Source: Myxococcota bacterium (GTDB lineage Bacteria > Myxococcota_A > UBA9160 > UBA4427). From it: a stretch of DNA of 64,000 nt. The stretch is from positions 3,200,001-3,264,000 of the forward strand of contig OZ252299.1 in assembly GCA_965250285.1 (NCBI GenBank). Reading direction: 5' to 3'. Positions 7,904-53,384 of the stretch are shown one piece after another. The position numbers and the translations under genes were made by a program. The notes under the pieces were generated by a model. It ran no database searches. It was not told the DNA's origin and saw only the letters and a list, made by a program, of their open reading frames with translations. The stretch's first letter is position 1; the number at the start of each line of letters is the position of its first letter.

Positions 7904-8432
7904 GCTCTTTCTCTCCTTGGGCGAGGCTTGCCTCGTCTTCCATCTGAGCGCCGTTGTCCTCGCTACGACTGTGGCAGCGCACCGAGTAGGGGCGGCGACG
8001 GCAGTGGGCTCCAGATGCCCACCCGCGGCTCAGCTCCAATCTATGGGGCCCGCGAGTAATCAAGTTAGAGAGGACCGATCGCAGGAGACTCTCTCACTTT
8101 GAGGGGTTTTTCGGAGGGTCGGCGCCCTCGTGGATGCTCACGCAGCTTCGAAGCCGAGCGTTGGCGAGGCGCTACTCCGCGCCTGACGCACCCTTCGCGA
8201 ATCGATCCAGCTCGAGCGCGAGAATCGAACAAGTGGAAGAGACCACCTGGTGAGGTGGCGCCACACATCCGAGTGGGGCAGCCAGCGGCTACGCGAGGCC
8301 GACGCCGAATCAGCTGCTGGAGGCCTCAACGCCTCGGGTCCCCGCGCGGAGTGATCGGATCCGGAACGAGACACGGGCCTGACGCTGCTCCTCCGCACCG
8401 ACCGACCGATCAAGCTGACGGGCCCGATGACG

Positions 8433-8455
8433 TGAAGCACGAGACCAGACTCGAA
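8433..8455 (-). repeat. Degenerate copy of the tRNA-Gly 3' end (att-like site)
   Basis: tgaagcacgagaccagactcgaa versus tRNA tggagcacgagaccagattcgaa, 21/23 identical. Confidence 0.75.
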
Positions 8456-8605
8456 GGGGCGTTATTGCCGCAGGCGTCGTCGAAACACGCAGTCGCGCCA
8501 TCCACGAGACGGCACAGGCGGAGAGGCCCCGTAGTGTGGCAGTTGCCGAAGCTTGATCATCTTCCTCGTGACAGCCGCCCGAACCTTCGCAGGCTGCGGA
8601 ACTCT

Positions 8606-9280
8606 TCACTTGGAATCAGAACGGTCGGAGTAGCCATCCCTGATGCGGTGCAGCAGCGGAGCGAGCAATGGGAAGGCCATCCACACGAACGGGGCGCGGC
8701 GTGGTGCGGCCCATCCAGCCAGGCACGCGACAACGGTGATCACGAGCATCAGAATCGTCGACGACCGCGGCGAGGTGACCGCGCGGTTGGTCAGGGCCTG
8801 TTGGACGAAAAAAGAGCGTTCGACGCTCCACATGCGGTCCAGGGCGATTCCGCCCATGATCAGCGTCAGGGAGAACACGACCACGGACCACGGATTGTTG
8901 CGGTGCTCCGCGATCAATGCGGTGGTGAAAGGAATGACGGACACAGCGGCCAGGAAGGCGAAGTTCCAACCCATGAATGCCCTCGACCGGTGACCACCCC
9001 CTACGAGCAGTGCGTGCTGGACGATCCACAGTCGCGCCAGGATCGCGAAGCTCAAGACCCAGGCCAGGAAGTGAGGAAGCTGCCTCAACAGCGCGCGTTC
9101 GGTGAACTCGCCGGTCGCTTCAGGCTCGAGGTTCAGGGGATCGAGGGCGGGCAACTTCAGATCGAGCACGAGAAGGGTCAGCGCAATGGCGAAGACCCCA
9201 TCGCTCAACGCGGCAAGGCGAGACGAGTCGAACCGAGCCTGCCTCATCCCCTGATCGCCATATGGAACCCCTCCATCCAT
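8606..9280 (-). CDS. TMEM175-family (DUF1211) potassium channel
   Basis: Signature RLAALSDGVFAIALTLLVLDL, SF...W..QH and N..FL...S.IPFTT; about 6 hydrophobic helices; start may be the second Met. Confidence 0.88.
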   Translation of the reverse strand: MDGGVPYGDQGMRQARFDSSRLAALSDGVFAIALTLLVLDLKLPALDPLNLEPEATGEFTERALLRQLPHFLAWVLSFAILARLWIVQHALLVGGGHRSRAFMGWNFAFLAAVSVIPFTTALIAEHRNNPWSVVVFSLTLIMGGIALDRMWSVERSFFVQQALTNRAVTSPRSSTILMLVITVVACLAGWAAPRRAPFVWMAFPLLAPLLHRIRDGYSDRSDSK

Positions 9281-9416
9281 CGAAGGCTAGCTTGCCGTTG
9301 ACGTCTTAATCAGGCGGCCCCCTGACTGCGCGGGGGTGGTCGTGGATCGCGTGGTGCGGCTATGTGAAGAGAGCCGCTCCGGAAAGCTAAAGGCCTGGCG
9401 GGGTGACTTCTTGACA

Positions 9417-9919
9417 TGGAGCACGAGATCAGATTCGAACTGGCGTTCCCTTCGCGACGGCGCGCGGGGCTGGCGCGCGAACTGGCATCCCCTTCGCACA
9501 CTGGGCGCGCCCTTTCGGGCACACCCAGCGCGCTCATACGATCTGCTCGCTCATCGCTCGCAGATCGCCCTCAAGTTGGCATGCCTTGAGCGCACGAGCC
9601 TCTAGCCCGAAACCGGCTTCGAGCTCTGGATACAAAAACGGCCCGCCCCACTACGTGGGACGAGCCGATTTTGTATGGAGCACGAGACCAGATTCGAACT
9701 GGCATTCCCTTCGCACATCAGTCCGCCGCTTCGCGGCGAACCGATGCGCTCATACGATCTGCTCGCTCATCGCTCGCAGATCGCCCTCAAGTTGGCATGC
9801 CTTAAGCGCACGGGCCTCTAGCCCGAAACCGGCTTCGAGCTCTGGATACAAAAACGGCCCGCCCCACTACGTGGGACGAGCCGATTTTGTATGGAGCACG
9901 AGACCAGATTCGAACTGGC
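9417..9919 (-). repeat. tRNA-linked tandem repeat (216-bp period) carrying the tRNA 3' end and terminator
   Basis: 9530-9703 matches 9746-9919 with 2 mismatches; the last 28 nt of the tRNA recur at 9676-9703 (exact) and 9417-9444 (1 mismatch). Confidence 0.92.
9847..9891 (-). terminator. Intrinsic terminator immediately after tRNA-Gly (second copy at 9631-9675)
   Basis: On the minus strand, a GC-rich hairpin cggctcgtcccac-gta-gtggggcgggccg followed by ttttt. Confidence 0.75.
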
Positions 9920-9967
9920 GACCCTCACGTTGGCAACGTGATGCTCTACCAACTGAGCTACTCGTGC
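9892..9967 (-). tRNA. tRNA-Gly (anticodon GCC)
   Basis: GCACGAGTAGCTCAGTTGGTAGAGCATCACGTTGCCAACGTGAGGGTCGCCAGTTCGAATCTGGTCTCGTGCTCCA; 76-nt cloverleaf with encoded CCA. Confidence 0.97.
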
Positions 9968-37730: not shown

Positions 37731-39431
37731 ATGAGCCGCTCGACCCCCGCGCCCGGGCCGCGCCTTCGCGGCGCACGAACGCACCGGTGGGCTCGCGCTG
37801 CCGCGAGCCTGTTCGTGCTCGCTTCACTCGCCTGCGCCCAGAAGGGTGGACCGGTCGATCCGATCGGTCCCGACCTGATGCAGGAGCTGCCCTCGGACGC
37901 TGAAGACATCGAGATCTTCGGCGGCATCCCGCTGAACGGCCTGCGCTTCATCGGCACGCACAACTCGTACCACCTGTGGCCGCGCCTGTTCGGCCTGCCG
38001 TTTCTGCCGATCGCGTTCTCGGCGAAGCATCGCTACGCGCAGCCGCCGCTCGGTGAGCAGCTCGACGGTGTGCCGGGTGGCCCGGGCGCCGTGCGACAGA
38101 TCGAGCTCGACCTGCACATGCGCCGCTTCGACGACTCGATCCGGGTGCTGCACGTGCCGTGGATCGACAACCACACGAGCTGCAAGACCCTGCAGATCTG
38201 CCTCGAGCAGGTCATGGACTGGTCCGAGAAACGCGGCGGGGTGCACGCCCCGGTTCTCATCTGGCTCGAGCCCAAGGACAAGACGCCCATCGACCGCTGG
38301 ATGTCGCTCGGCTTCTACGAGCGCGTCGACCTGATGCGCGTCGAAGAGGCGGTGTTCGAGGTCATCCCACGAGAACGCATCCTCATGCCGGATGACCTTC
38401 GGCGCGGCGAGCGCACGCTGCCCGACGCCATCACTCATCATGGCTGGCCCACACTCGATGCGCTCGAAGGCAAGTTCATCTTCGCGCTGCTCGACGAGAG
38501 CGAGCATCGACAGGAGTACGTCGGGCTGAGCCCGCTGCGCAATCTCGAAGGCCGGCTCATGTTCGTGCGCTCGAGCGCACCGACCGAGCCCTGGGCCGCG
38601 ACGTTCAAGATCGACAACTCGGTGCCGACCCTCGAAGACATGCAGGTCTTCGGGCAAGAGGCCCTCGCCGATCCCGAGCTCGCGGCCCTGCAGGTGTACC
38701 CCGAGCCCCCGACGACCGACAACGCGTTCGTCGCCTGGTGGAAGAACCTGTGGCTGATCGCGCAAGGCCAAGGCGACGAGACGGGGTCGAGCGAGAACGA
38801 AGACGAGGACGCAGCCCGACAGAACCGGTCGAAGGGCGATACCGAGCCCTCGCCCGACAGGCAGAGCGTGGTCAACGGCGAGCCCTCAGCCGATGCTGAT
38901 GCCGGCGCAGAGAAAGACCTCACGAGCGAAGCCAAGGCGCCGACGCCCGAGGTCGATTGGCGGCTGCGTCGCGAGCTGCGCTCGGTCTCGTTCGACACGC
39001 GCGACGAGGCGCGCCAGCGTCACCTCGAAGCCGTCGATGCGCTCGAAGAGCGGATGCGCGCCGAGGTCGCGCCCGAGAGCGAGGATCTCGCCATCGTGCT
39101 CGAGAACGCGCGGCGATCGCGCGACTACCGGGACGTGCTGCGCGAGCGCCTGCGCGGCTTCATCGGCGACCACCGTCGCGCGCGAATCCTCGCGCTCGTG
39201 CGCGACGGTTTCCTCGTCACGACGACCGCCGACGACCCCCACCGCGACGCCGACACCAACCGCCGCGTCGCGCTCTCGTCGCTGCTCTCGGGCGCTCAGT
39301 ACGTGAGCACGAACGCGCTGACGCCGAGCGCGCGAGATGGCTATCTGCTCGAGGTGCCCGGCGCTTCGATCCGCTGCAACGTGCTCGTCGACCCCGACGG
39401 CTGCGCCAACGCCGTCGACGACGAGCGCTGA
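37731..39431 (+). CDS. Ca2+-dependent phosphoinositide-specific phospholipase C-like lipoprotein
   Basis: Lipobox SLAC; GTHNSYH, VRQIELDLH, VLHVPWID..TSC, H.PVLIWLEPKD, GWPTLD.LEGKFIF, SGAQYVST. Confidence 0.82.
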   Translation: MSRSTPAPGPRLRGARTHRWARAAASLFVLASLACAQKGGPVDPIGPDLMQELPSDAEDIEIFGGIPLNGLRFIGTHNSYHLWPRLFGLPFLPIAFSAKHRYAQPPLGEQLDGVPGGPGAVRQIELDLHMRRFDDSIRVLHVPWIDNHTSCKTLQICLEQVMDWSEKRGGVHAPVLIWLEPKDKTPIDRWMSLGFYERVDLMRVEEAVFEVIPRERILMPDDLRRGERTLPDAITHHGWPTLDALEGKFIFALLDESEHRQEYVGLSPLRNLEGRLMFVRSSAPTEPWAATFKIDNSVPTLEDMQVFGQEALADPELAALQVYPEPPTTDNAFVAWWKNLWLIAQGQGDETGSSENEDEDAARQNRSKGDTEPSPDRQSVVNGEPSADADAGAEKDLTSEAKAPTPEVDWRLRRELRSVSFDTRDEARQRHLEAVDALEERMRAEVAPESEDLAIVLENARRSRDYRDVLRERLRGFIGDHRRARILALVRDGFLVTTTADDPHRDADTNRRVALSSLLSGAQYVSTNALTPSARDGYLLEVPGASIRCNVLVDPDGCANAVDDER

Positions 39432-39688
39432 GCGCCCGCCCGGCCGCGCGGCCACGAAGTCGAGCCAGACCGGCGAGTTGCGACTCGGCCTGCGCCGTCG
39501 CGACGACTCGGGCAGCGCGCTTTGCCCCCCATCCATCCACACCCGTGCCATTCGGCCCATGGGTGGCTGCGCCGAACCACCCGATGATGCGACCCGACGC
39601 TGCCAACCGGCAGCTCGATCGATCGGCAGCCCGCCGATCGCCGCGGCCGATGGTGGGCGCGATCCAAGTGAAACGGAGTGGTTGGAAC

Positions 39689-40708
39689 ATGCTGGGGTTC
39701 GACGTGCGCAACGGCTGGGCGGTCCTGGGTCTTCTGCTGGTGAGCTTCTTCGGCATTGCATGCGGCGAAGAAGGAGGCGAAGCCGGCGCCGTCCCGCAGG
39801 CCGACTTTGCCGCGATCTTCGAAGGCGAAGCGGTCGAGATCGAAACGCAGGGCACCGAGACGCGGCTGACGTTCCAGGACATCCGCTACGACTTCGGCAC
39901 GGCGTTCGGCCTCGACCCTGTCTCGCACCCGACGCTCGACAAGTTCGCCATGGTCTTCGCGACGATGCCCGCGGCCCGGTACATGGTCGTGGGGCACACC
40001 GACGACCGCGGTGACGCCGATGGTCGAGTCGAAGAATCGAAGCAACAGGCCGGCGCCGTCGCCAGCTATCTGATCGGGATCGTGGGCGGCGAACGGCTCG
40101 CGTTCGACTCCGACGGCGTCGGCGGCGCTTTCCCGATCGCGACCAATGCCACCAAGAACGGCCGAGCGCTCAACCGTCGCATCGAGATCATCGTCGAGGC
40201 CGATCCGCCCGGCCGTACATATCGTCTGACGATGGCGGCCGACGTGCTCGACGTCATCGAAGACTGCGACGATTTCACGGGCTCGCCGTCTGCGGCCGCC
40301 GGCGACTTCTTCATCCAGACCGAGTTCGCGTTCTTCAGGAGCACACGGATCACCAACTCGCCGAACGTCGAGGTCCCCGCCAACGCCGGCGAGACCATCG
40401 ATCTCGACATCGCAGCCGAGACGCTCTACTGGACGTCTCGTAGCGGGAGCCTCGACTACCGCGTCGACTGGTCCGAGGCCGATACCGAGGGCCCGCAGTT
40501 CGAGTTGTCGGCGGGGAGCGACATCCGGTGGTCCGAGTCGGACGGATGCTGGCTCGTCAACGTGGGACCGCCCGGCGGAAGGTGTCTCTCGCGCACCGAG
40601 GGCGTGATCGACTCCGGCACGTCGATCGTCGCGATGCCCGGCACCGCGACCCAGGATGCATGCTTCGTCGAGCTCGACTGGTCGCTGACCGCTGAGCGGG
40701 TTCAGTAG
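39689..40708 (+). CDS. Lipoprotein with OmpA-like C domain plus an unrecognised beta-rich, Cys-containing domain
   Basis: Lipobox GIAC; VVGHTDDRG, PIATNAT..GRALNRRIEI. Confidence 0.78.
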   Translation: MLGFDVRNGWAVLGLLLVSFFGIACGEEGGEAGAVPQADFAAIFEGEAVEIETQGTETRLTFQDIRYDFGTAFGLDPVSHPTLDKFAMVFATMPAARYMVVGHTDDRGDADGRVEESKQQAGAVASYLIGIVGGERLAFDSDGVGGAFPIATNATKNGRALNRRIEIIVEADPPGRTYRLTMAADVLDVIEDCDDFTGSPSAAAGDFFIQTEFAFFRSTRITNSPNVEVPANAGETIDLDIAAETLYWTSRSGSLDYRVDWSEADTEGPQFELSAGSDIRWSESDGCWLVNVGPPGGRCLSRTEGVIDSGTSIVAMPGTATQDACFVELDWSLTAERVQ

Positions 40709-40829
40709 GTGGCGGTCGACCGACCGCGTGTGGCTGCCGATCGTTTGCGCAAGAGCTGCCGGTCGCGCGCCCGCGCAGCGATCTAGGGGCACACGATCAC
40801 AAGGTCGACCGCGCTCCAACCGATGAGGT

Positions 40830-41438
40830 GTGGGTGCAGCCCGGCCGCGGCGTGCACCTGCGACGTCTCTGGAGCCCATGTTGCACGCCCCCGCCCCGCC
40901 CTCCCCCGATACGCGACCGACGCCTCCCTTCTTCGGCGCGCTTCGACGCGCGACGGCGCGTGTCGGCTCACCCGAAGCGCGAAGCCTCTCGGCGGAGCTC
41001 GCCGCCGACGTGGTCGAGGGGGGATGGCGGGTCGTGCAGTCGATCCGTTGGCCGACCTGGGGCGGCGCCGTCGACTTCTTCACGCACCAGGTGGTCGTGA
41101 ACTTGGTCGGCTGGATGGCGGGCTTCGCGACCGCGCACCTCGTCACGCGCTGGTTCGAGGTGCGCGGGCTCCGCAATCTCTGGGGCCTCGTCGCATCGGG
41201 CGACCGCACGCTCGTGAGTGCCGATCACCATCGCTTGATCATGACGTTCACCGGCTTCACCGTCGGGCTGCTCATGATGCTCTTCGTTCGGCACTGCTTG
41301 ATGCGCTGGATCGCCGAGACGCGCTCGCTCCGCGCCGACCGACGCGGCGGCCACGTGGCGACGCGCGAAGAGCACGCTCCTTCGAGTGGCGTGCCCCTCG
41401 CGCACTTCGAAGCACTCGAAGCCGAGCCCGAGCAGTAG
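40830..41438 (+). CDS. Hypothetical membrane protein (2 TM); start uncertain
   Basis: Two hydrophobic helices around FEVRGLRNLWGL; GC3-biased codon usage. Confidence 0.55.
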   Translation: MGAARPRRAPATSLEPMLHAPAPPSPDTRPTPPFFGALRRATARVGSPEARSLSAELAADVVEGGWRVVQSIRWPTWGGAVDFFTHQVVVNLVGWMAGFATAHLVTRWFEVRGLRNLWGLVASGDRTLVSADHHRLIMTFTGFTVGLLMMLFVRHCLMRWIAETRSLRADRRGGHVATREEHAPSSGVPLAHFEALEAEPEQ

Positions 41439-42020
41439 CGAGCCCACACCGCGGTCCACGCCCTTTCGTCGCGCGCTCAGCCCAACGACGCGAAGGGATC
41501 GATACGTCTCGCACACGCACGAAGCTGTTTGTCGAACCAACGCAGCGTGGGTCGGCATCCGTCGTCGTTCGCGCCACGATTTCGATGCGCGCGTATCGCC
41601 CCGCGAACGGGTCGTAGCGCGAGCAAGCCGTCCGGTCGACATCTCGGTGTCGCCAGCGCGTTCGATTGACGGCTTGCACCGATCGATGACGTTGTAAAGA
41701 AGCGAAACAACATCACCACAGCATGTCTCGAGCGCATGATGTCACGAAACCCGCACACCTCAGGGGTCGTCATGCGTCGAGCGCAACCTATGCCACAAAC
41801 AATCTTTGCACTGACTCGGCGTCCACGCGCTCAACGCGATCATGACGATTGGACCGATGGAACTGAAAGATTTCGGCTGCACACTGTGTGCACGTCGAAG
41901 CGAACCGAGCTCGTTCGGCGCTTCGACGTCAATTGCGCTGTGTGCGGCGTGGTAGGATCCACGAGCGACGCGCAGTCGAAGCGACTCTGTTGAATCGAGT
42001 CTGTCCTGGAGACACCGTCG

Positions 42021-42512
42021 ATGAAGCCCTGCGCGTTGATCCTGTCGATCCTGCTCACGATCGCGAGCAACCCGGCCTGGGCCGATGACGAGATCGTCTC
42101 GGGCCCCGACCGGCGCCACGAACTGGACCTTCGGATCAAAGAGATCGAAACCGAGCGAGATCAGATCTCGGTCGCGGCACCGGCGGTCTACACCTTCATT
42201 GGGCTCGGCATCGCCGCGGTCGGGGCTTTGGTTCTCGGAGGCGGGATCGCCCGCAACAACGATCCCGACGGCTCGCCTTCAGGCACCGCTGCCATTGGCG
42301 GCGGCGCGGCGCTCATCGCCATTGGCGGTGTGACCAGCTTCATCAGCGGCACCGTATGGAGTCGCCGCTCCGACAAGCGCAATGCGCTCGATGCCGAGCG
42401 CGAGTCGCTCATCAAAGAGCGCGGGACGCTCAGCGAAACGCTCTCCCGCGTCGAGATCCGAAGCCCACACCGTGACGGCACCCAGTTCGTGACGCTCGGC
42501 GTTCGCTTCTGA
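42021..42512 (+). CDS. Tandem paralogue 1: exported Gly-rich hairpin protein with C-terminal beta-signal-like motif
   Basis: GGAG RBS; MKPCALILSILLTIASNPAWA signal; ends LSRVEIRSPHRDGTQFVTLGVRF. Confidence 0.85.
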   Translation: MKPCALILSILLTIASNPAWADDEIVSGPDRRHELDLRIKEIETERDQISVAAPAVYTFIGLGIAAVGALVLGGGIARNNDPDGSPSGTAAIGGGAALIAIGGVTSFISGTVWSRRSDKRNALDAERESLIKERGTLSETLSRVEIRSPHRDGTQFVTLGVRF

Positions 42513-42666
42513 GACAGCGCGCTCTTGGGGCTGCACGATGCGAGGGCCGCACCCGCCCCATCAGCTCACCAGAGACACGCCTTCGCGGCATTCATTCTTG
42601 ATCGGCATGCGACGATCGACATCGAATCGACCCTCGAACGCCGATTCGGTCTGGGAGGAAAGCTCG

Positions 42667-43149
42667 ATGAAGCCCTGCGCGTTGATCCTGTCGATCGTCG
42701 TGACTCTGACCGGCAGCCCTGCTTGGGCCAACGACGAAGTGCTCCTACCGACCGACGTTCGCAGGTACATCGACCTCCGCGTAGAGGAGCTCGATGCCGA
42801 GCGCGATCAGATCTCGACGACAGGACCGCAGCTGGCCACGATCTTCGGCGTTCTGGGGGTCGTGGGCGGCACGGTGGCGCTGCTCGCTGCGCCACAGGCC
42901 ACGAACGACGAGAACGCTCCAGTCGGCGCCATCACAGCGGGCTTGATGCTCATGACGGCGGGCGGCGCCTCGACGGTCGTCGGCGCGATCTTGTGGGGAA
43001 AGCGTGCGAAACGGCGCCGAACGATCGACGCCGAGCGCGAGCTGCTGATCAAGGAGCGCAACGCCATCACCGAGTCGCTCTCGCGGATCGAGCTGAGCGC
43101 CCCGTTCCGCGACGGCACCCATTTCGTCACGCTCGGCGTTCGATTCTGA
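42667..43149 (+). CDS. Tandem paralogue 2
   Basis: GGAGG RBS; MKPCALILSIVVTLTGSPAWA; ends LSRIELSAPFRDGTHFVTLGVRF. Confidence 0.85.
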   Translation: MKPCALILSIVVTLTGSPAWANDEVLLPTDVRRYIDLRVEELDAERDQISTTGPQLATIFGVLGVVGGTVALLAAPQATNDENAPVGAITAGLMLMTAGGASTVVGAILWGKRAKRRRTIDAERELLIKERNAITESLSRIELSAPFRDGTHFVTLGVRF

Positions 43150-43304
43150 GACCGAATGGCGTCTGACTTTCGAACATCGAAGCGGTCCATCCGCGCCACG
43201 CCTTCAAGGGCGATGAGGTTTCGGATCACACATCCACATTCGGCCGCAACGAACGACATCGAAACCGCCCTCGGGCATCGACTTCGTTCAGGGAGAGAAC
43301 CTCG

Positions 43305-43799
43305 ATGAAGACCTGCGCGTTGATGTTGTCGCTCATTTTTTCCCTCGCCAGCTGCCCGGCATGGGCGAACGACGAAGCGCTGGCGCCGACGGACGTTCGC
43401 AGGCACATCGACCTGCGCCTCAAGCTGCTCGATTACAAGCGCGAGCAGATCTCGACGACGGCGCCAAAGGTGGCGACGTTCGCGGGCATCGGAGGGTTGC
43501 TGGGCGGTGCGATCGCGATCGTCGTCGCAACGCAGGGGTGCCGAAGCGCCGACCGCTCTTGCGGAGACCGCTGGGGTGCATCCATTGCAGGGATCACCTT
43601 GCTCTCGGTCGGCGGCGTCACGACGCTCATCAGCGGCATCGTGTGGGGCACGCGGGTCAAGCAACGCAACAAGATCGATGCCGAGCGAGAGCTGCTGATC
43701 AAGGAGCGCAACGCCATCACCGAGTCGCTCTCGCGCATCGAGCTGAACACCCCTTTCCGCGACGGCACCCAGTTCGTGACGCTCGGCGTCCGGTTCTGA
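43305..43799 (+). CDS. Tandem paralogue 3
   Basis: MKTCALMLSLIFSLASCPAWA; variable loop CRSADRSC; ends FRDGTQFVTLGVRF. Confidence 0.85.
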   Translation: MKTCALMLSLIFSLASCPAWANDEALAPTDVRRHIDLRLKLLDYKREQISTTAPKVATFAGIGGLLGGAIAIVVATQGCRSADRSCGDRWGASIAGITLLSVGGVTTLISGIVWGTRVKQRNKIDAERELLIKERNAITESLSRIELNTPFRDGTQFVTLGVRF

Positions 43800-43952
43800 G
43801 ACCGCCTCGCGCCTGATCGACGCGCGTCGAAGCGGGCCATCGACCCAATGACCTCACCCACGAAACGGCTTCAAGTCACGCATCCATCTTCGGCCCTACA
43901 GAATGACATCGAGCCCGGCTCGGGCACCGACTTCATTCAGGAGGCAACACCG

Positions 43953-44447
43953 ATGAAGACCTGCGCCCTCATTCTCTCGATCGTGATGACCCTCGCAAGC
44001 GCCCCAGCTTGGGCGCTCGACGACGTCGCAACCCGACCCGACCGCCGCCATGAGATCGACCTGCGCATCGAGGCCCTCGAGGCCGAGCGCGAGGAGATCT
44101 CGACCAAAGGCCCCAAGGTGGCCACGATCTTCGGGATCACATCCCTCCTGAGTGGCGTGGGTGCGTTGGCTTCGCTCGCCCGACCGTGTCGCGAGGCATT
44201 CGATGAATGCGCACCCCGCGTGGGCGCAGGCGTCACCGGGATCACATTGTTCGGCGTCGGCGGCATCTCGACCATCGTCGGCGGCCTCCTCTGGAACAAG
44301 CGCGCGAAACGTCGCCGCGCCATCGAGGCGGAGCGTGAAGCGCTGATGCACGAGCGCGAGGCGCTCGCCGAGGCGCTGTCGCGCATCGAGCTGAGCACCC
44401 CGTTCCGCGACGGTGCCCGGTTCGTGACGCTCGGCTTCACCTTCTGA
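43953..44447 (+). CDS. Tandem paralogue 4
   Basis: AGGAGG RBS; MKTCALILSIVMTLASAPAWA; loop CREAFDEC; ends FRDGARFVTLGFTF. Confidence 0.85.
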   Translation: MKTCALILSIVMTLASAPAWALDDVATRPDRRHEIDLRIEALEAEREEISTKGPKVATIFGITSLLSGVGALASLARPCREAFDECAPRVGAGVTGITLFGVGGISTIVGGLLWNKRAKRRRAIEAEREALMHEREALAEALSRIELSTPFRDGARFVTLGFTF

Positions 44448-44510
44448 AACGCGTCGATCGATCAGCCGAAACCCGAATCACCGAACGGAACTGTCTTGGA
44501 GAATCGAATC

Positions 44511-45023
44511 GTGAAGTCGTGCGCCCTGCTCTTGTCGCTCCTCCTGACCTTCATCAGCGGCCCCGCCTGGGCGGAGGAATCGCTGGTCACCGGGCCCGAT
44601 CGTCGCCAAGAGATCGATCTGCGCCTCGAGTCGCTCGACGCCGAACGCGCGAAGATCTCGACGCGCGGGCCTGCGATCGGAACGGCCGTCGGGCTGGGCA
44701 CGGTCGCCCTGGGCGGGGTCTTGCTCGGCGTCGGGGTCGCTCAGTGCGACGGGCGAGCGAGCGAATACGGACCGTGTACCGGCCCAGGCTCGGGGATCGG
44801 CGCACAGGTCGGCGGCGTCGTCATGATGATCGCGGGCGGCTCGATCACGCTCATCAGCGGCATCGTCTTGGGCCGTCGCGCCAGCCGCCGCGACAAGATC
44901 GACGCCGAGATCGAGTCGCTCATCGACGAACGAAAGGGCCTCAAGGCCACGCTCTCACGGCTCGAGCTGAAGAGCCCCCACCGCAACGGCACTCAGTTCG
45001 TGACGCTCGGGTTCGACTTCTAG
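44511..45023 (+). CDS. Tandem paralogue 5
   Basis: GTG start, (M)KSCALLLSLLLTFISGPAWA; loop CDGRASEYGPC; ends HRNGTQFVTLGFDF. Confidence 0.85.
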   Translation: MKSCALLLSLLLTFISGPAWAEESLVTGPDRRQEIDLRLESLDAERAKISTRGPAIGTAVGLGTVALGGVLLGVGVAQCDGRASEYGPCTGPGSGIGAQVGGVVMMIAGGSITLISGIVLGRRASRRDKIDAEIESLIDERKGLKATLSRLELKSPHRNGTQFVTLGFDF

Positions 45024-45083
45024 GCGGCGTCGGGTGACTCACCCGCGCACGTACCAGATCGAACCAACATGGAGACGGGCATC

Positions 45084-45146
45084 GTGAAGCTCCTTGCGTT
45101 GATCTCATCGCTCCTCCTGACCTTCATCAGCGGCGGCGCCTGGTGA
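45084..45146 (+). pseudogene. Tandem paralogue 6, truncated at the end of the signal peptide
   Basis: (M)KLLALISSLLLTFISGGAW-stop; tcgctcctcctgaccttcatcagcggc is identical to copy 5, then the sequence becomes unrelated. Confidence 0.75.
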
Positions 45147-45637
45147 ATGACGGAGACCCCACCCCGATCATCGTGATACTGAAGGTCATGTCCGGAGTTC
45201 GTATCGACGCTTCGGACCCGATGCATGAACGGCTCCAAGCCGTCGTCCAGTTTCCGGGCGTCGACCTCGACGATCTCGACGACTCGGAGCCGCCCTTCTT
45301 CACGTATCTCCCAGAAGTCGTTGCTCACACGTCCGACGAGGACTTCTGTGCGGCGCGCGACGAGCTGCGAGAGCTTCTGAGGCTCGCCGATCCGGTGGCC
45401 GAGAAGATCGGCGATCGGCTGCATCCGCTCGCTGCCAGGGTCGCCCTCAGCTACCGCGAGGACTTCGACCCGTTCATGTGCAAGCTGCTCGTGATCACCT
45501 GGGCGGGGTTCAGGCAGGTCGAGCATGGACGCGAGCAATACACTCGCGCGCGCGACTGGCTCGTGACGACGAATGCGCTCACGGAGCGACCGCAGCTATC
45601 GACCGAGGAGAGAAGCGATGCCCGTCATTCTCGATGA
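45143..45637 (+). CDS. Hypothetical protein upstream of cas1, possibly a 5'-truncated fragment
   Basis: 164-aa open frame starting at the junction with paralogue 6, no RBS; stop codon overlaps the cas1 start region. Confidence 0.5.
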   Translation: MNDGDPTPIIVILKVMSGVRIDASDPMHERLQAVVQFPGVDLDDLDDSEPPFFTYLPEVVAHTSDEDFCAARDELRELLRLADPVAEKIGDRLHPLAARVALSYREDFDPFMCKLLVITWAGFRQVEHGREQYTRARDWLVTTNALTERPQLSTEERSDARHSR

Positions 45638-46844
45638 ATCACCCGTCAAGTCCGGCACACTGATGCTCCGCGGCTACGGAATCCGCATCGCGGTCGAGCG
45701 TGGATATCTCGTTGCGGAGGACGGCGTCGGCCGCGATCGACGCCGGATCCGCATTCCCCGGCCATCTCGCAACCTCGACCGCGTGATTGTCATCGGGCAC
45801 ACCGGCGAGATCACGTTCGACGCTCTGCGCTGGCTCTCGGACATCGGTGTGGGGTTCTCTCAGATCGACAACGACGGGAACGTGATCGCGGCAGTTGGCC
45901 CTCTGGGCCTTCGCGACCCCAGGCTGCGGCGTGCTCAGGCGATGGCAGCCGATACGGGTCGTGGCCTGGAGATTGCGCGGGATTTGATCCTCACAAAGCT
46001 GGAGTCACAGGCATCTGTTGTGTCTCGTCTCTGCCGAGCGCCCGCAAATGATGTAGGTGAAGCCTTCGAGAAGGCGCGGGGCGCGGAGTCGATCAAAGCC
46101 TTGCGTTCGCATGAGGCGACCGGAGCGCTGTCCTACTGGTCGGCCTGGTCGGATCTGCCGATGCGGTTTATCGGCAAGGATGAGAAGCGCGTACCCGAGC
46201 ACTGGAAGGCCTTCGTGCAGCGCACTTCGTACGTGACGAAGAGTCCGCGCAAAGCGATGAATCCGATCAATGCGATTCTGAACTACCTCTACGCGATCCT
46301 CGAAACAGAGGCCCGGATCGCCTGCCTGGGAGTAGGCCTCGACCCCGGCATCGGGCTCATGCACGCGGACCTGCAGTCGCGGGACTCACTGGCCGCAGAT
46401 CTCATGGAGCCGATCCGTCCTGAGGTCGATGCATGGGTGCTCGACCTCGTCCAGAGCAACATCTTCCGGAAGGCTGACTTCTTCGAGACTCGCGACGGGG
46501 TCTGCCGTCTCATGCCACCGCTCACCGAACAGCTCATGAAGACCGAGAATCATTGGCGGAGGCTGATCGCGCCAATCGCGGAGTACGTCGCGAAGCGGCT
46601 ACTAGTCGATCCCACCGCGGGGAGTCGCCGCACCGACAAGATCAAGCTCAAGACACCTCTCACGCAGGAGAATCGGAGCCGAGCGCGGGATGGGGTTCGC
46701 CGGCGACGAAGGCCCTCCAGCAAGCGACCGAGGCATCTGCTCGATCGCATCTGCGCCGACTGCGGGGCCAGCGTGGGACCGAGTACCGAACGCTGTCCGT
46801 CCTGCAGGCCTCCGTGTCGATCCAGCCAGACGGTGCGCGGCTAG
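45618..46844 (+). CDS. cas1: Stand-alone Cas1 (casposase-like) with C-terminal Zn ribbon
   Basis: GAGGAG RBS; G.ITFDALRWL..IGV, LRRAQ, catalytic E (LRSHEA..A.SYW), NPINAILNYLY, GLDPGIGLMH (H), SLAADLMEPIRP (D/E); CADC...CPSC. Confidence 0.9.
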   Translation: MPVILDESPVKSGTLMLRGYGIRIAVERGYLVAEDGVGRDRRRIRIPRPSRNLDRVIVIGHTGEITFDALRWLSDIGVGFSQIDNDGNVIAAVGPLGLRDPRLRRAQAMAADTGRGLEIARDLILTKLESQASVVSRLCRAPANDVGEAFEKARGAESIKALRSHEATGALSYWSAWSDLPMRFIGKDEKRVPEHWKAFVQRTSYVTKSPRKAMNPINAILNYLYAILETEARIACLGVGLDPGIGLMHADLQSRDSLAADLMEPIRPEVDAWVLDLVQSNIFRKADFFETRDGVCRLMPPLTEQLMKTENHWRRLIAPIAEYVAKRLLVDPTAGSRRTDKIKLKTPLTQENRSRARDGVRRRRRPSSKRPRHLLDRICADCGASVGPSTERCPSCRPPCRSSQTVRG

Positions 46845-48005
46845 ACAAGGGGGCCGAAAACCCCGCATTCACACCGAACCCAATACCGGGACGAGTCGAG
46901 GGCGAGGCGCCACATCAGCGCTAGGCCGAACGATCGCCGCACCAGAGCCAAGACGAGAGAGCGGGGCTGTGGATCCCCGCAAGACCGAAAGCGGCTTTGT
47001 TGGACCCCCTACCTACTATTCCAGCTGACGGCGGAAACGATCAGCGACTGCCTCGCGCTCAGCGCTAGGATCCCGCGGCATTCACTTGCTCGACCGATAC
47101 AACTGGCGATTCACCAGGTACTCGAGCAGCCAGATTTCCACAGGAGTCGATCCATGATTCGCTTCGTTGCGGCCACGGTTTCCCTGATCACCTCACTCTC
47201 GATGGTCGCCCCCGTGCGGGCCGAGAGCGCAAAGAAGGTCGACGACCCGACCGGCTGGTCAGTGGGCGGGGGCATCGGCGCCGCCGCCAGCCCCGGACAG
47301 TTCGTGCTCCAGCTGGATGCGCCGTACCGCTTCTCCGAGTTGTTCTCAGCGGCTCCGACCTTCCAGCTGCTGGCGGGCAGCAGCTTCACGCGAATCTCGA
47401 TGTCACTCGACGGAGTGGTGCACCTGAACCTCTTCGACGAGAGCGACAACGTCGTCCTCGCGAATCTGACGCCTCACGTCGGCCTCGGTGCAGGCTTCAC
47501 TCACTTCAGTGCGTTCGGCTTCAACGAAACGAATTTCCTCCTCCCTATCATCATGGGGCTCGAGTTCGATCTCACGGAGGAGATCGCGCTGACGAACGAG
47601 ATGCGGTTCAACATCGTAGTCACCAGCGATTTCGACACCTTCTACTGGTCATGGCAGCTGATCGGGGTCCGGTACCGGTTTTGAGTCGAGAGCCCGAATC
47701 TCGCGCCGGTTACACAGCACGATCCCTCAGAGTACAGCCGGAGATCTAGTCCTCGAATGCGTGAATGGGGTTACTCACGTCTGCGTGAGCCAGCCTGGCT
47801 GCTCGGTCGACTTCTTCTCAGGCCACGGCCTCTCGAATACGTATGGCTACTACATTGGCCGTATCGCTACATCCTGATCTGAGCCGCGATTGAGGAGCGA
47901 TCCGCCTGCCTCTCTACCTGCTGACCTAACTAGAATCAAGATTCGAACGGATTGAGTTCAGTTTCCCGCAGGAGCCAAGGCGGCCCTTTTCGACCCCCTT
48001 ATCTA
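46842..48005. mobile_element. Possible non-autonomous element bounded by 19-bp inverted repeats
   Basis: tagacaagggggccgaaaa (46842-46860) and ttttcgacccccttatcta (47987-48005) are 17/19 reverse-complementary; no transposase inside. Confidence 0.4.
47154..47684 (+). CDS. Small outer-membrane beta-barrel protein (8-stranded type)
   Basis: AGGAG RBS; signal ending VRA; alternating amphipathic strands, PHVGLGAG; C-terminal IGVRYRF. Confidence 0.78.
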   Translation: MIRFVAATVSLITSLSMVAPVRAESAKKVDDPTGWSVGGGIGAAASPGQFVLQLDAPYRFSELFSAAPTFQLLAGSSFTRISMSLDGVVHLNLFDESDNVVLANLTPHVGLGAGFTHFSAFGFNETNFLLPIIMGLEFDLTEEIALTNEMRFNIVVTSDFDTFYWSWQLIGVRYRF

Positions 48006-48056
48006 CTAACCCTCAGGCGAGTTGACCGGAACCGACTTTCGTCTTATTTTCGCCTC

Positions 48057-49244
48057 ATGTCGACGATCCCGAAGCCCACCCTGCCTCTCTCGCAGACGCC
48101 CGCCCCACGCGTGGCCCAGACCGCTCCGGCGGGCGCCCTGCGCGGCCGTGGGGCGCTCGACAACCCCACGAATCGCTTCGAGCGGTACCACTACGACCGC
48201 GATGAAGAGGCGCTCGCGGCGATCCGCCTGGCGGATCACGTCGACGACGCGCCCGAGGCGGCGGGGCTCGACGGCGAAGACGAAGCGGCGCTGCGCCCCC
48301 ACCCCGACACCCTCTTTCTGCGCGACCCGACGCGCAAGATCCTCAGCCGCAACGCGAGCCCCGACGTGCCGTTCGACGTCAGCATCAATCCGTATCGCGG
48401 CTGCGAGCACGGTTGCATCTACTGCTACGCCCGGCCTGGCCACGAGTTTCTCGGCTTTTCGGCCGGGCTCGACTTCGAGACCCGCATCCTCGTGAAAGAG
48501 GACGCACCCGAGCTGCTGCGCGACGAGCTGCTGAAGCCGAAGTATCGGCCGAAGCTGATCGGGCTCTCGGGCGTGACCGACCCGTACCAGCCGATCGAGC
48601 GAAAGACTCGGCTCACCCGGCGCTGCCTCGAGGTGCTCGCCGAGTTTCGCAACCCAGTCGGGCTCATCACGAAGAACGCGCTGGTGCGACGCGACGTCGA
48701 CGTGCTGCGCGAGCTGACCGATCACGGGGCGCTGGCGGTCAGCCTGTCGATCACGACGCTCGACGACGAGCTGCACCGGGTGCTCGAGCCCCGCACGTCG
48801 TCGCCCCGCATGCGACTCGAAGCGGTTCGGGTGCTGGCCGACGCGGGGATCCCCGTCGGCGTGAACGTGGCCCCGGTGATCCCGGGGCTCAACTGTCACG
48901 AGATCCCGTCGATCCTCGAGGCGGCCGCGGCGGCCGGGGCTCGCACGGCGGGGCACATCGTGCTGCGGCTGCCCCATGGCGTGAAAGAGCTCTTCGAGGC
49001 CTGGCTGCGCGAGCACCGCCCCGAGCGCGCCGACAAGGTGCTCAACCGGCTGCGCTCGATGCGCGGCGGCGCGCTCGACGATTCACGCTTCGGGACGCGC
49101 ATGAAGGGCGAAGGCATCTTCGCGCAACAGATCCACGATCTGTTCGATGTGTCTTTGCGGCGCGCGGGCCTCGCGCGCGAACGCACGACGCCGACGACCG
49201 AACACTTTCGCCGCCCGCCCGCGCCGCAGCTCGAGCTCTTCTGA
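48057..49244 (+). CDS. Radical SAM protein, PA0069/Rv2578c family
   Basis: GRGA..NP.NRF, SINPYRGCEHGCIYCYAR, TDPYQPIE, LEPRTS.P; C-terminal QLELF. Confidence 0.93.
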   Translation: MSTIPKPTLPLSQTPAPRVAQTAPAGALRGRGALDNPTNRFERYHYDRDEEALAAIRLADHVDDAPEAAGLDGEDEAALRPHPDTLFLRDPTRKILSRNASPDVPFDVSINPYRGCEHGCIYCYARPGHEFLGFSAGLDFETRILVKEDAPELLRDELLKPKYRPKLIGLSGVTDPYQPIERKTRLTRRCLEVLAEFRNPVGLITKNALVRRDVDVLRELTDHGALAVSLSITTLDDELHRVLEPRTSSPRMRLEAVRVLADAGIPVGVNVAPVIPGLNCHEIPSILEAAAAAGARTAGHIVLRLPHGVKELFEAWLREHRPERADKVLNRLRSMRGGALDDSRFGTRMKGEGIFAQQIHDLFDVSLRRAGLARERTTPTTEHFRRPPAPQLELF

Positions 49245-51574: not shown

Positions 51575-51818
51575 CGGTTTCGACCGCCCCTCCCGAGTGA
51601 TGCTGACCAGCGACGCGACTTGTCCGGAGCGAGCAGCGGGCGCGCACTCGACCGGCAGATGGACGGGATTGCCCGCTCACCTCCACGCATTCGAGTTGTT
51701 CGGCGTCGAGGAATGCGAGATGATGAACGCGGACCGCAACGCACCTTACACCGCCGATCCACGCCGCGGGTCGTTCTGCGACCCCCGCTCGTCTCATGCC
51801 GCCACTGGAGACCCGATC

Positions 51819-52385
51819 ATGAAGCGCTCGCTCAAGTACGCCCTTCCCGCCGTCGCCCTCATTGCCCAGGGCATCGATGAGCCCGCCCACGCCGACGACC
51901 TGTTCCTCCAGATCGATCCCGCCGAGGGCGAGTCGGTCACGCAGGGGTACGAGGGCCAGATCGACGTGCTCGCCTGGTCGTGGGCTGCAGAGAACTCGGG
52001 CGACGCCATCGGGATCGGGGGCGGGGGTGGCGGCGGAAAGGCCAACCTCTCGAGCCTCAAGATCATCAAGAGCGTCGACGCGGCCACGCCCGTGCTGGTG
52101 ACGTACGCGACCGAGGGCACCTTCTTCGACGAAGCGATCCTGACGGCGACGCGCCAGACGAGCAAGGGCAATGCGGAGTTCATGAAGATGACGCTCACGA
52201 CAGTGCTCGTCTCGAAGGTGGCTCATGGCGGGCGAGCGGGCGACGGCGACGACGGCGTAGCCGAGACACTCACCCTCGACTACGTGAAGGTCTGCCTCGA
52301 GTACCGCAAGTTCAACACGAAGACGGCGGAGTTCGATCTGTGGCAAGAGTCGTGCTGGGATCGCGCCAAGAACGCCTCCTTCTAG
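51819..52385 (+). CDS. hcp: Hcp (type VI secretion tube protein) homologue with N-terminal signal-peptide-like extension
   Basis: GGAG RBS; D.FLQID..EGES....YEGQIDVLAWSW, GGGGGKA, K.VDAATP.L, G..FDEA.L, E.LTLDY.K..LEY, WD..KN. Confidence 0.85.
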   Translation: MKRSLKYALPAVALIAQGIDEPAHADDLFLQIDPAEGESVTQGYEGQIDVLAWSWAAENSGDAIGIGGGGGGGKANLSSLKIIKSVDAATPVLVTYATEGTFFDEAILTATRQTSKGNAEFMKMTLTTVLVSKVAHGGRAGDGDDGVAETLTLDYVKVCLEYRKFNTKTAEFDLWQESCWDRAKNASF

Positions 52386-52412
52386 ACCGACCGTCCCGAA
52401 ACGGGTTCGTTC

Positions 52413-53384
52413 ATGCTGCGCGCGCTCTGCTCTCGCCCCGTGTTCTCGCGATCGCTCCGTCGATCGCCGATCGGCCTCATCAGCCTCGTCGGTTGCGTGA
52501 GCGTCTTGGCGCTGACGAGCGTGCCCGCTCAGGCGGAGTACGTGCTGGTCAGCGGTGAGACCTGGCGGGCCCACACGCTGGCCGGCGTGATCCTGCTGCC
52601 CTCGGGTTCGGTGTTCGACGTCGAGGCCGAGCAGCTCGCGCTGATCACGACGTCGGTCGAGCCCGCCGACACGATCGTCTTCGACGTGTCGGGCGGAACC
52701 GCGCGACTCGAGAGCGACCCGCCCTCGGTGCTGCTCGACGACGATCCCTTCTTCGCGCCCTTCGCACCCGAGAGCGAAGTGCAGACGCTGACGTCGGCGG
52801 CCGGGCTCTTCGAGCCCGGGCCCTCAGCCGCCGCGGTGGACGCGGCCGGAAGCCTCACCTGGGTCGGCGAGATCACCGCCCCGGCCCCAGCCGGCGGCGG
52901 AGGCGGCGGGGGGCCCACCGACAGCGATGGCGACGGTGTGCCCGACGCGAGTGACAACTGCCCGAACGTCGCCAACGCCTCACAGACCGATACCGACGGC
53001 GACGGCCTCGGGGACGCGTGCGATCTCGACGACGACGACGACGGCGTGCCCGATGCCAGCGACAACTGCCCGACGACGCCGAACCCGTCGCAGGCGAACT
53101 TCGATGGCGACGCGCTCGGCGACGCCTGCGATCCCGACGACGACGGCGACGGCCTGTCGGACGTGCTCGAGATCGGCACCTACGCCACCAACCCGCTCGA
53201 CCCGGACAGCGACGACGACGGCTTCGACGACCTCGAAGAGGTGCAGGCGGGCACCGATCCCAACGACGAGAACTCGTTCCCGAGCCCGCCGGTGCCGGTG
53301 CTCGGCACAGTGGGCGGGCTGCTCGTAGGCGCGGCCCTCGCGACGCTCGGCGCGCGCCGGGCGCGGCGACTCGGCCGACGCTGA
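52413..53384 (+). CDS. Exported thrombospondin type-3 repeat protein with C-terminal sorting/anchor segment
   Basis: Signal ending AQA; DSDGDGVPDASDNCP..Q.D.DGDGLGDACD repeats; TNPLDPDSDDDG; VPVLG, TM helix, RRARRLGRR. Confidence 0.85.
   Translation: MLRALCSRPVFSRSLRRSPIGLISLVGCVSVLALTSVPAQAEYVLVSGETWRAHTLAGVILLPSGSVFDVEAEQLALITTSVEPADTIVFDVSGGTARLESDPPSVLLDDDPFFAPFAPESEVQTLTSAAGLFEPGPSAAAVDAAGSLTWVGEITAPAPAGGGGGGGPTDSDGDGVPDASDNCPNVANASQTDTDGDGLGDACDLDDDDDGVPDASDNCPTTPNPSQANFDGDALGDACDPDDDGDGLSDVLEIGTYATNPLDPDSDDDGFDDLEEVQAGTDPNDENSFPSPPVPVLGTVGGLLVGAALATLGARRARRLGRR

Follow-up and report, generated by a model that had tools for sequence, protein, structure and literature searches.

A truncated casposase, likely inactive, in a probable broken stack of bacterial casposons before a predicted radical SAM promoter, in a family whose intact members appear to insert at promoter −35 boxes

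The lone cas1 gene at 45618..46844 (+ strand) of the window, i.e., the whole 64,000-nucleotide stretch of Myxococcota bacterium DNA analysed here (GCA_965250285.1, contig OZ252299.1, positions 3,200,001 to 3,264,000), is most likely a truncated casposase gene stranded in a broken stack of bacterial casposons before the predicted promoter of a radical SAM gene, with a product that is likely inactive. At the level of sequence, we could show (i) its membership of a casposase family, (ii) the loss of an HTH tail, (iii) three casposon ends, (iv) a 14-bp target that ends in a predicted −35 box, and (v) the absence of polB. A previous sequence-only reading of this DNA had offered a casposon remnant or a minimal PolB-less Cas1 element, with a more speculative link to a neighbouring array of variable genes; from that interpretation, the remnant and the casposon nature of three repeats stand, and the PolB-less type and the array link are not supported.

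The window Cas1 is a protein of 408 amino acids that matches PF01867 in Pfam over residues 17-302 (E 9e-43). Its catalytic residues (E166, H249, D261, and E264) are all present and are invariant across 120/120 aligned sequences, with the core followed by a basic linker and a CxxC..CxxC zinc ribbon (C379, C382, C393, and C396); Pfam match and alignment thus confirm these features, which had been seen from the letters alone. Its fold is predicted with confidence (mean pLDDT 85.8), with casposase 6opm as its top fold match (E 3e-18) and 4n06 as the next (E 1.5e-15). Compared with the best 119 homologues, to which it is 46-58% identical and which have a median length of 522 amino acids, the window protein ends after the ribbon and has lost its last ~110 residues. 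In 102/119 homologues, the ribbon is followed by a helical linker and an HTH-like motif, both of which are missing from the window copy while its catalytic residues are intact; likewise, 118/132 Cas1 copies across the related loci extend to the end of the profile. The stop codon of the window gene falls within a casposon end repeat (end C, below), which supplies it. No frameshifted or remnant cas1 tail was found in any frame near the window copy, and an alignment extension past the stop was judged spurious. Across 98 conserved sites, the core carries only 2 changes, both conservative, with at least as many present in 73/102 full-length homologues; since the core is uneroded, either the truncation would be recent or the core would still be under selection. 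As removal of the HTH abolished integration by the Methanosarcina mazei casposase (PMC6977970, available text), the window protein is, by analogy, probably dead as an integrase.

The arrangement does not stem from misassembly. One X1 contig covers 43706-49500 of the window with zero differences, and pieces from X2 and X3 cross both junctions of the locus; these agreeing contigs rule out an assembly error, with X1, X2, and X3 being runs of one study and X1 possibly the source sample.

To place the gene, we examined 162 loci, comprising the best 80/287 genome matches, the best 80 of at least 462 metagenome matches, and two stretches of G018, a genome of the same family; the search query was an alignment of 43 sequences drawn from the 120. 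The relatives are 510-530-residue casposases of Cas1-zinc ribbon-HTH architecture residing in bacterial casposons of 11-18 kb. Within this set of best matches, an ORF of the polB cluster occurs in 75 of the 82 loci whose flank upstream of cas1 reaches 7 kb or more, a c0 gene in 72/82, and an HNH-like gene in 65/82, the last label denoting a Cys/His pattern read by eye with no Pfam HNH match. The usual order is polB-HNH-c0 on the opposite strand, followed by a variable gene and then cas1, with the polB of L052 and L170 found away from its standard place. PF03175 scored above its cut-off in three of four full-length polymerases of relatives, a PDB search with one relative's polymerase gave no match, and the c0 protein yielded weak HTH matches only (E 0.03). 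The survey of neighbourhoods proposed in the sequence-only reading hence returned both polB, at the frequency above, and inverted termini, in 26 complete elements. A minimal PolB-less Cas1 element is therefore not supported as a type: polB is normal in this family, and its module is missing at a junction in the window.

Named hosts of the relatives include Acidobacteriota, Chloroflexota, Actinomycetota, and Gemmatimonadota. A quick tree of 54 rows, built from relatives and CRISPR Cas1 outgroups, joins the window Cas1 to L169 (from G018), L110, and L111 at a support of 90, all three being full-length casposases beside polB. The same tree separates the window protein from 8/9 outgroup sequences, six of the outgroups being annotated beside cas2; the remaining outgroup row, L007, falls with the casposons at the tip of a very long branch. 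Five loci (L026, L052, L058, L097, and L149) hold two cas1 copies each, in opposite orientation in four, and are likely stacked or rearranged elements. A Mom-family gene lies between c0 and cas1 in L010, L020, L115, and L129 (PF25680, scanned for L010). The contigs of L055 and L058 are labelled Patescibacteria and Micrarchaeota, and their copies group with acidobacterial ones in the tree, which would reflect either transfer or a binning error.

Searches of the host genome, which is 95% complete, bear out the view of a solo Cas1 with no CRISPR array, cas2, or PolB. The window gene is the sole PF01867 match, a genome-wide search for Cas2 (PF09827) gave zero matches, and a crude 20-mer scan found no repeat-spacer array, the first two units of each of its 10 candidate bins being whole-unit tandem repeats. 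Profiles of polB, the HNH-like gene, and c0 built from the relatives found nothing credible in the genome (best polB-profile match E 0.007). Rfam identified a single tRNA in the window, far from the cas1 locus. Apart from this, repeats of 40-196 nt at 8432-9967 resemble the end of the tRNA at 9895-9967 and are possible integration scars. Elsewhere in the window, 51794-53384 holds what we take by eye to be an Hcp-like gene, beside a gene with Asp-rich 36-residue repeats, presumably thrombospondin type 3-like. Beyond the host, a single-sequence search of genome contigs with the window protein returned nothing, with matches obtained from the alignment-based search, and plasmids yielded only distant Cas1 proteins, mostly of CRISPR type. 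Over 68 genomes of the host family, a 14-base end pattern matched at the level of a reversed control, exact matches being present in G000, G001, and G018, plus one site in G006.

Three repeats around the 3′ end of the gene, proposed in the sequence-only reading as donor ends (46842-46860, 46976-47022, and 47965-48012), proved to be real and to correspond to casposon ends by alignment or by a matrix built from 25 hand-picked elements of relatives (50 ends, several candidate pairs having been dropped as other repeats). The best-preserved is end B (47965..48012, − strand), a right end and the top matrix match of the 6.2-Mb genome at 32.6 bits versus 16.5 for the next. End A (46976..47022, − strand) is a worn right-facing end whose 11.4 bits lie within the background (21 genome matches at ≥11 bits); its support comes from alignment to end B and to the corresponding end in G001, a genome of the same genus, and no clean 14-bp target lies behind it. 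End C (46842..46866, + strand) faces left and has lost its first 7 bases, including terminal bases that are invariant in 50/50 training ends; over 19 bases, it agrees with the inverted core of repeat B at 17, and the 19-mer at 46842 is the sole match to that core in 6.2 Mb at up to 3 mismatches.

Immediately beyond end B lies the surviving copy of a 14-bp target (48013..48026, + strand), which ends in TTGAC. There is no second copy in the window at up to 2 mismatches, and so no paired duplication; four scattered matches with 3 mismatches were judged to be chance. Upstream of cas1, a left casposon end was sought and not found, with a best matrix score of 5.9 bits. The TTGAC of the target opens a predicted sigma-70 promoter (48022..48050, + strand; −35 at 48022-48027, 17-bp spacer, −10 at 48045-48050), the only promoter-like site in 44900-48200; as shuffled sequences give 0.6 such sites, the prediction is weak alone, and it is conserved after the same end in G001. 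The target is intergenic, 30 bp upstream of the start of a PA0069-family radical SAM gene (48057..49244, + strand; NF033668, 461 bits against a cut-off of 360). This is a host gene outside the element, present in 25/41 genomes searched, and no casposon end was found near 23 other radical SAM loci. End B is thus followed by the geometry seen across the family (below), namely a TTGAC-ending target, a 17-bp spacer, a −10 match, and a gene start.

On the other side of cas1, five tandem paralogues of 160-170 residues, 43-59% identical and belonging to no Pfam family, occupy 42021..45023 on the + strand (42021-42512, 42667-43149, 43305-43799, 43953-44447, and 44511-45023). By eye, each has a signal peptide, two Gly-rich hydrophobic segments, and a C-terminal Phe, and they differ most in their middle part; an Atlas search returned look-alikes that are unnamed proteins of no named family. 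The first three spacers of the array align with one another and so were duplicated along with the genes, and no Rfam match occurs in the spacers. A sixth paralogue is reduced to a stub (45084..45146, + strand) of 20 codons and a stop, which runs into a 3′ remnant (45143..45637, + strand) of the c6 gene that precedes cas1 in relatives; here we place a putative deletion junction. The remnant matches positions 232-324 of the 362-position c6 profile and is its only match genome-wide (E 4e-4), full-length c6 proteins having about 340 residues and one of them a weak MerR-type HTH match. Between ends A and B lies an outer-membrane beta-barrel-like gene (47154..47684, + strand; PF13505, E 0.0013, below cut-off) of a type common in the host family, with matches in 48/67 genomes. 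Upstream of the array, an OmpA-domain protein is encoded at 39689-40708, and similarity to G001 stops near 39405; the start of a variable island may lie somewhere in 39400-42000.

Two related genomes suggest how this arrangement could have arisen. In G001, the same end, target position, and promoter are present as at end B of the window, with a single copy of one array paralogue ~80 bp inside the end. No cas1 was found in this genome, which is 83% complete and in which the contig stops 500 bp beyond the paralogue; upstream of the latter (L197:2200-2500) lies a short reading frame that we take by eye to be a broken fragment of a succinate dehydrogenase iron-sulfur subunit. In G018, an intact element is followed by a second across a common target, with the end of the second nearly equal to end B, and a cas1 fragment is cut off at another end repeat, as in the window. 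The intact casposon there (L169, from 7522 onward) carries cargo weakly resembling a SMODS-like nucleotidyltransferase, and the tandem 8.5-kb second element (L170:1-8968), with a NERD gene and a transposase, ends against the cas1 fragment.

We infer the following history for the window. An older unit containing a paralogue would have inserted at the radical SAM promoter, giving the state seen in G001, and a later, polB-bearing casposon would have used that target again. A deletion running from the sixth paralogue into the gene before cas1 would then have taken out the polB-HNH-c0 module along with the left end and the left copy of the target, with a second rearrangement at an end repeat cutting off the tail of cas1. 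As neither the left end nor the left target copy was found, both the extent of the element and the order of these events are inferred. The array is, as judged from its sequence, an ordinary tandem duplication of gene plus spacer; because one paralogue lies ~80 bp inside the same end in G001, the array is likely cargo of the older unit, expanded in this way.

Intact relatives reveal where such elements land. An unbiased search for inverted termini flanked by a 14-bp direct repeat found 26 complete elements of 10.9-17.8 kb within the 162-locus set, 24 of them from the 54 loci that have 9 kb of sequence to either side; these are mostly acidobacterial, some with a common target gene, and so are not independent counts. 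Among the 25 hand-picked elements, for which repeats of 5-29 bp were allowed, the longest exact flanking repeat measures 14 bp in 23 elements and 15 bp in the other 2. TTGAC closes the 14-bp target in 20/26 complete elements, with a near match in 4 and another sequence in 2. A −10 match (TAnnnT) follows at a spacer of 17 (14 cases) or 18 (6 cases), again 20/26 in all; across spacers of 8-29, it is otherwise seen only once, at 22, and the opposite side of the elements shows at most 1 TAnnnT at any spacer. Of the 6 elements with no −10 match at 17-18, 3 then show an apparent further end, leaving 3/26 with neither a −10 match nor a subsequent end. By comparison, a −10 match follows 52/934 intergenic TTGAC sites in G000 and 32/261 of those upstream of gene starts (6-12%, from one other genome and with a crude gene caller), and 125/3775 TTGAC sites in the loci themselves. 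The elements lie in either orientation relative to the target (14 one way, 12 the other).

A replicate with 64 further ends outside the 26 loci gave 28 with the motif facing away from the element, 21 with it facing inward, and 15 with neither, several of these last being one-base shifts or variant −35 boxes; a −10 match follows 16/28 outward-facing ends, and 9 of the 12 misses are then followed by another end. The genes downstream are diverse, the 7 scanned including class I and class II tRNA synthetases, RNase P protein, malic enzyme, thiolase, and rhomboid. We are thus confident, from the sequences, that intact relatives insert at the −35 box of predicted host promoters. Smaller units also occur between ends of this kind: a 1.5-kb unit at L067:18445-19984, stacked behind a casposon, has an NAD synthase gene, an end on either side, and a 14-bp duplication whose copies differ at one base, and single genes lie between ends in L023 (a beta-helix gene) and L071 (a TPR gene).

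In such relatives, Cas1 would join the element ends to a staggered 14-bp cut, of which the promoter-side edge would be the fifth base of the −35 hexamer. Fill-in would duplicate the target, leaving the host promoter whole on one flank and open to further insertions, which would build stacks. As for how the promoter is found, we lean slightly towards the −35/−10 region being read directly, probably by means of the HTH, over a somewhat less likely guidance by RNA polymerase-sigma bound there; a survival bias acting on insertions of lower specificity is an improbable source of the pattern. HTH-less relatives comprise L068 (beside polB), L167, L090, and L101. The casposases L068:14904 and L167:3658 terminate in a pair of zinc ribbons and have no HTH, and neither TTGAC nor a −10 match accompanies the 14 bases next to the end repeats of these two loci, a hint from two kindred copies that the HTH may set promoter targeting.

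A broader model, which we regard as tentative and rather doubtful, is that the clade recognises sigma-70 promoters and collects elements and gene units there as a CRISPR-like gene array, of which the window would be one stack. Recognition would occur via the protein's own zinc ribbon-HTH tail or via bound RNA polymerase, with the cut always duplicating the −35 box. Each promoter would thus act as leader plus repeat, collecting full elements and small gene units in order; the window stack would consist of the paralogue unit, the casposon, and the beta-barrel unit, and the HTH-less Cas1 may still serve it. Neither a working gene-array system nor activity of the window protein is well supported.

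Among alternatives to a broken, inactive remnant, the one that survives best, itself unlikely, is that the 408-residue protein has stayed functional as an integrase, retained in the absence of polB, and mobilises small units bounded by ends, e.g., 46842-48012 with its beta-barrel gene. The intact core and catalytic residues, the confident predicted fold, and the facing of ends C and B as an inverted pair would all suit this, as would the 1.5-kb NAD synthase unit of L067 with its near-perfect duplication; moreover, HTH-less relatives exist, a family 1 casposase works with no HTH (PMC8464041), and the proposed family 5 mostly lacks both PolB and HTH (PMC9755687), as far as the available text of both papers goes. 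Against it, the unit 46842-48012 begins at an end C that supplies the cas1 stop codon, is missing invariant terminal bases, and has no target copy to its left; the genome contains no other strong end, and the nearest relatives in the tree are full length and beside polB.

Far less probable is that Cas1 built or maintains the five-gene array in the manner of integron cassettes, the link suggested in the sequence-only reading for a retained integrase with both the array and the beta-barrel gene. Adjacency of cas1 to the array, the variable middle part of the copies, and the paralogue within the same end in G001 could be read in its favour. Yet no end-like site above 6 bits occurs between or within the paralogues, whose spacers were copied along with them; the 162 related loci contain no homologue of either the paralogues or the beta-barrel protein (0/162), so that a functional link is not supported, and no end lies near the weak homologues of the paralogues found in 7 other genomes. 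That the gene is an orphan Cas1 of CRISPR type, stranded when a CRISPR locus was lost, is a negligible prospect: although the protein passes the general cas1 model TIGR00287 and scores alike by sequence profile against 6opm and 4n06, it fails all subtype models save one type II model over 88 residues only, its place in the quick tree is among polB-linked proteins and apart from 8/9 outgroups, no cas2 or array was found, casposon ends adjoin the gene, and the neighbourhoods of its relatives (polB in 75/82 loci; 26 complete casposons) refute the idea. We therefore retain the reading of a casposon remnant, which family membership, the three ends, and the missing polB module support; presumably descended from family 3 casposons but lacking polB, the HTH, and a paired duplication, the window copy is, on its sequence, filed as such and not as an intact member.

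By published description, the relatives would be bacterial casposons of family 3 type with the domain order of AceAut-C1, an element in a bacterial host with polB and with a zinc-binding domain and HTH fused at the C-terminus of its Cas1 (PMC4046053, available text). There, the first bases of the end repeat are those of the ends described here, and the 15-bp direct repeat begins CGTCAA, the reverse of TTGACG; judged by these letters, the published AceAut-C1 repeat fits the −35 rule unnoticed, its target being given only as "intergenic" in that text. The window copy differs from AceAut-C1 in having no HTH, polB, HNH-like gene, c0, or left end. Family 2 casposons (M. mazei, source of the best fold match of the window protein, 6opm, E 3e-18, PMC6977970; Aciduliprofundum boonei AciBoo-C1) resemble the relatives in their 14-15 bp duplications, C-terminal HTH, and tandem insertion at one site (PMC4779613), but are archaeal, lie in many cases at tRNA 3′ ends, and share about 25% identity, and a zinc ribbon before the HTH, present in the relatives here, is not described for them in the parts of the literature examined. 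HTH-less Cas1 integrases like the window copy are known from family 1 (“Candidatus Nitrosopumilus koreensis” AR1, PMC8464041) and the proposed family 5, mostly lacking PolB (PMC9755687); from the available text, both are HTH-less by descent, whereas the closest relatives of the window protein have HTH and polB, and its own HTH loss coincides with an end-repeat junction. CRISPR-associated Cas1 (Archaeoglobus fulgidus, 4n06) has the same fold and catalytic residues, and the window protein differs in having neither cas2 nor an array and in its separate branch of the quick tree.

All bacterial casposon targets were called intergenic in the available part of PMC4779613, and the word "promoter" occurs 0 times in the main text of PMC4779613, PMC9939771, PMC8464041, and PMC9755687. 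Promoter targeting by casposons was not found in the literature searched. The promoter landing rule of this family is well supported by its sequences, testable, and apparently unpublished, and on the same sequence grounds it would explain the position of the window locus.

Ultimately, the window locus itself would be an ordinary fossil that matters little; its family matters more. With insertion at a fixed base of the −35 box, one could test directly by what means a Cas1 integrase chooses its site and how the polarity of leader and repeat may have arisen; the intact relatives also offer an integrase for cargo of 11-18 kb, with the host promoter predicted to stay undamaged.
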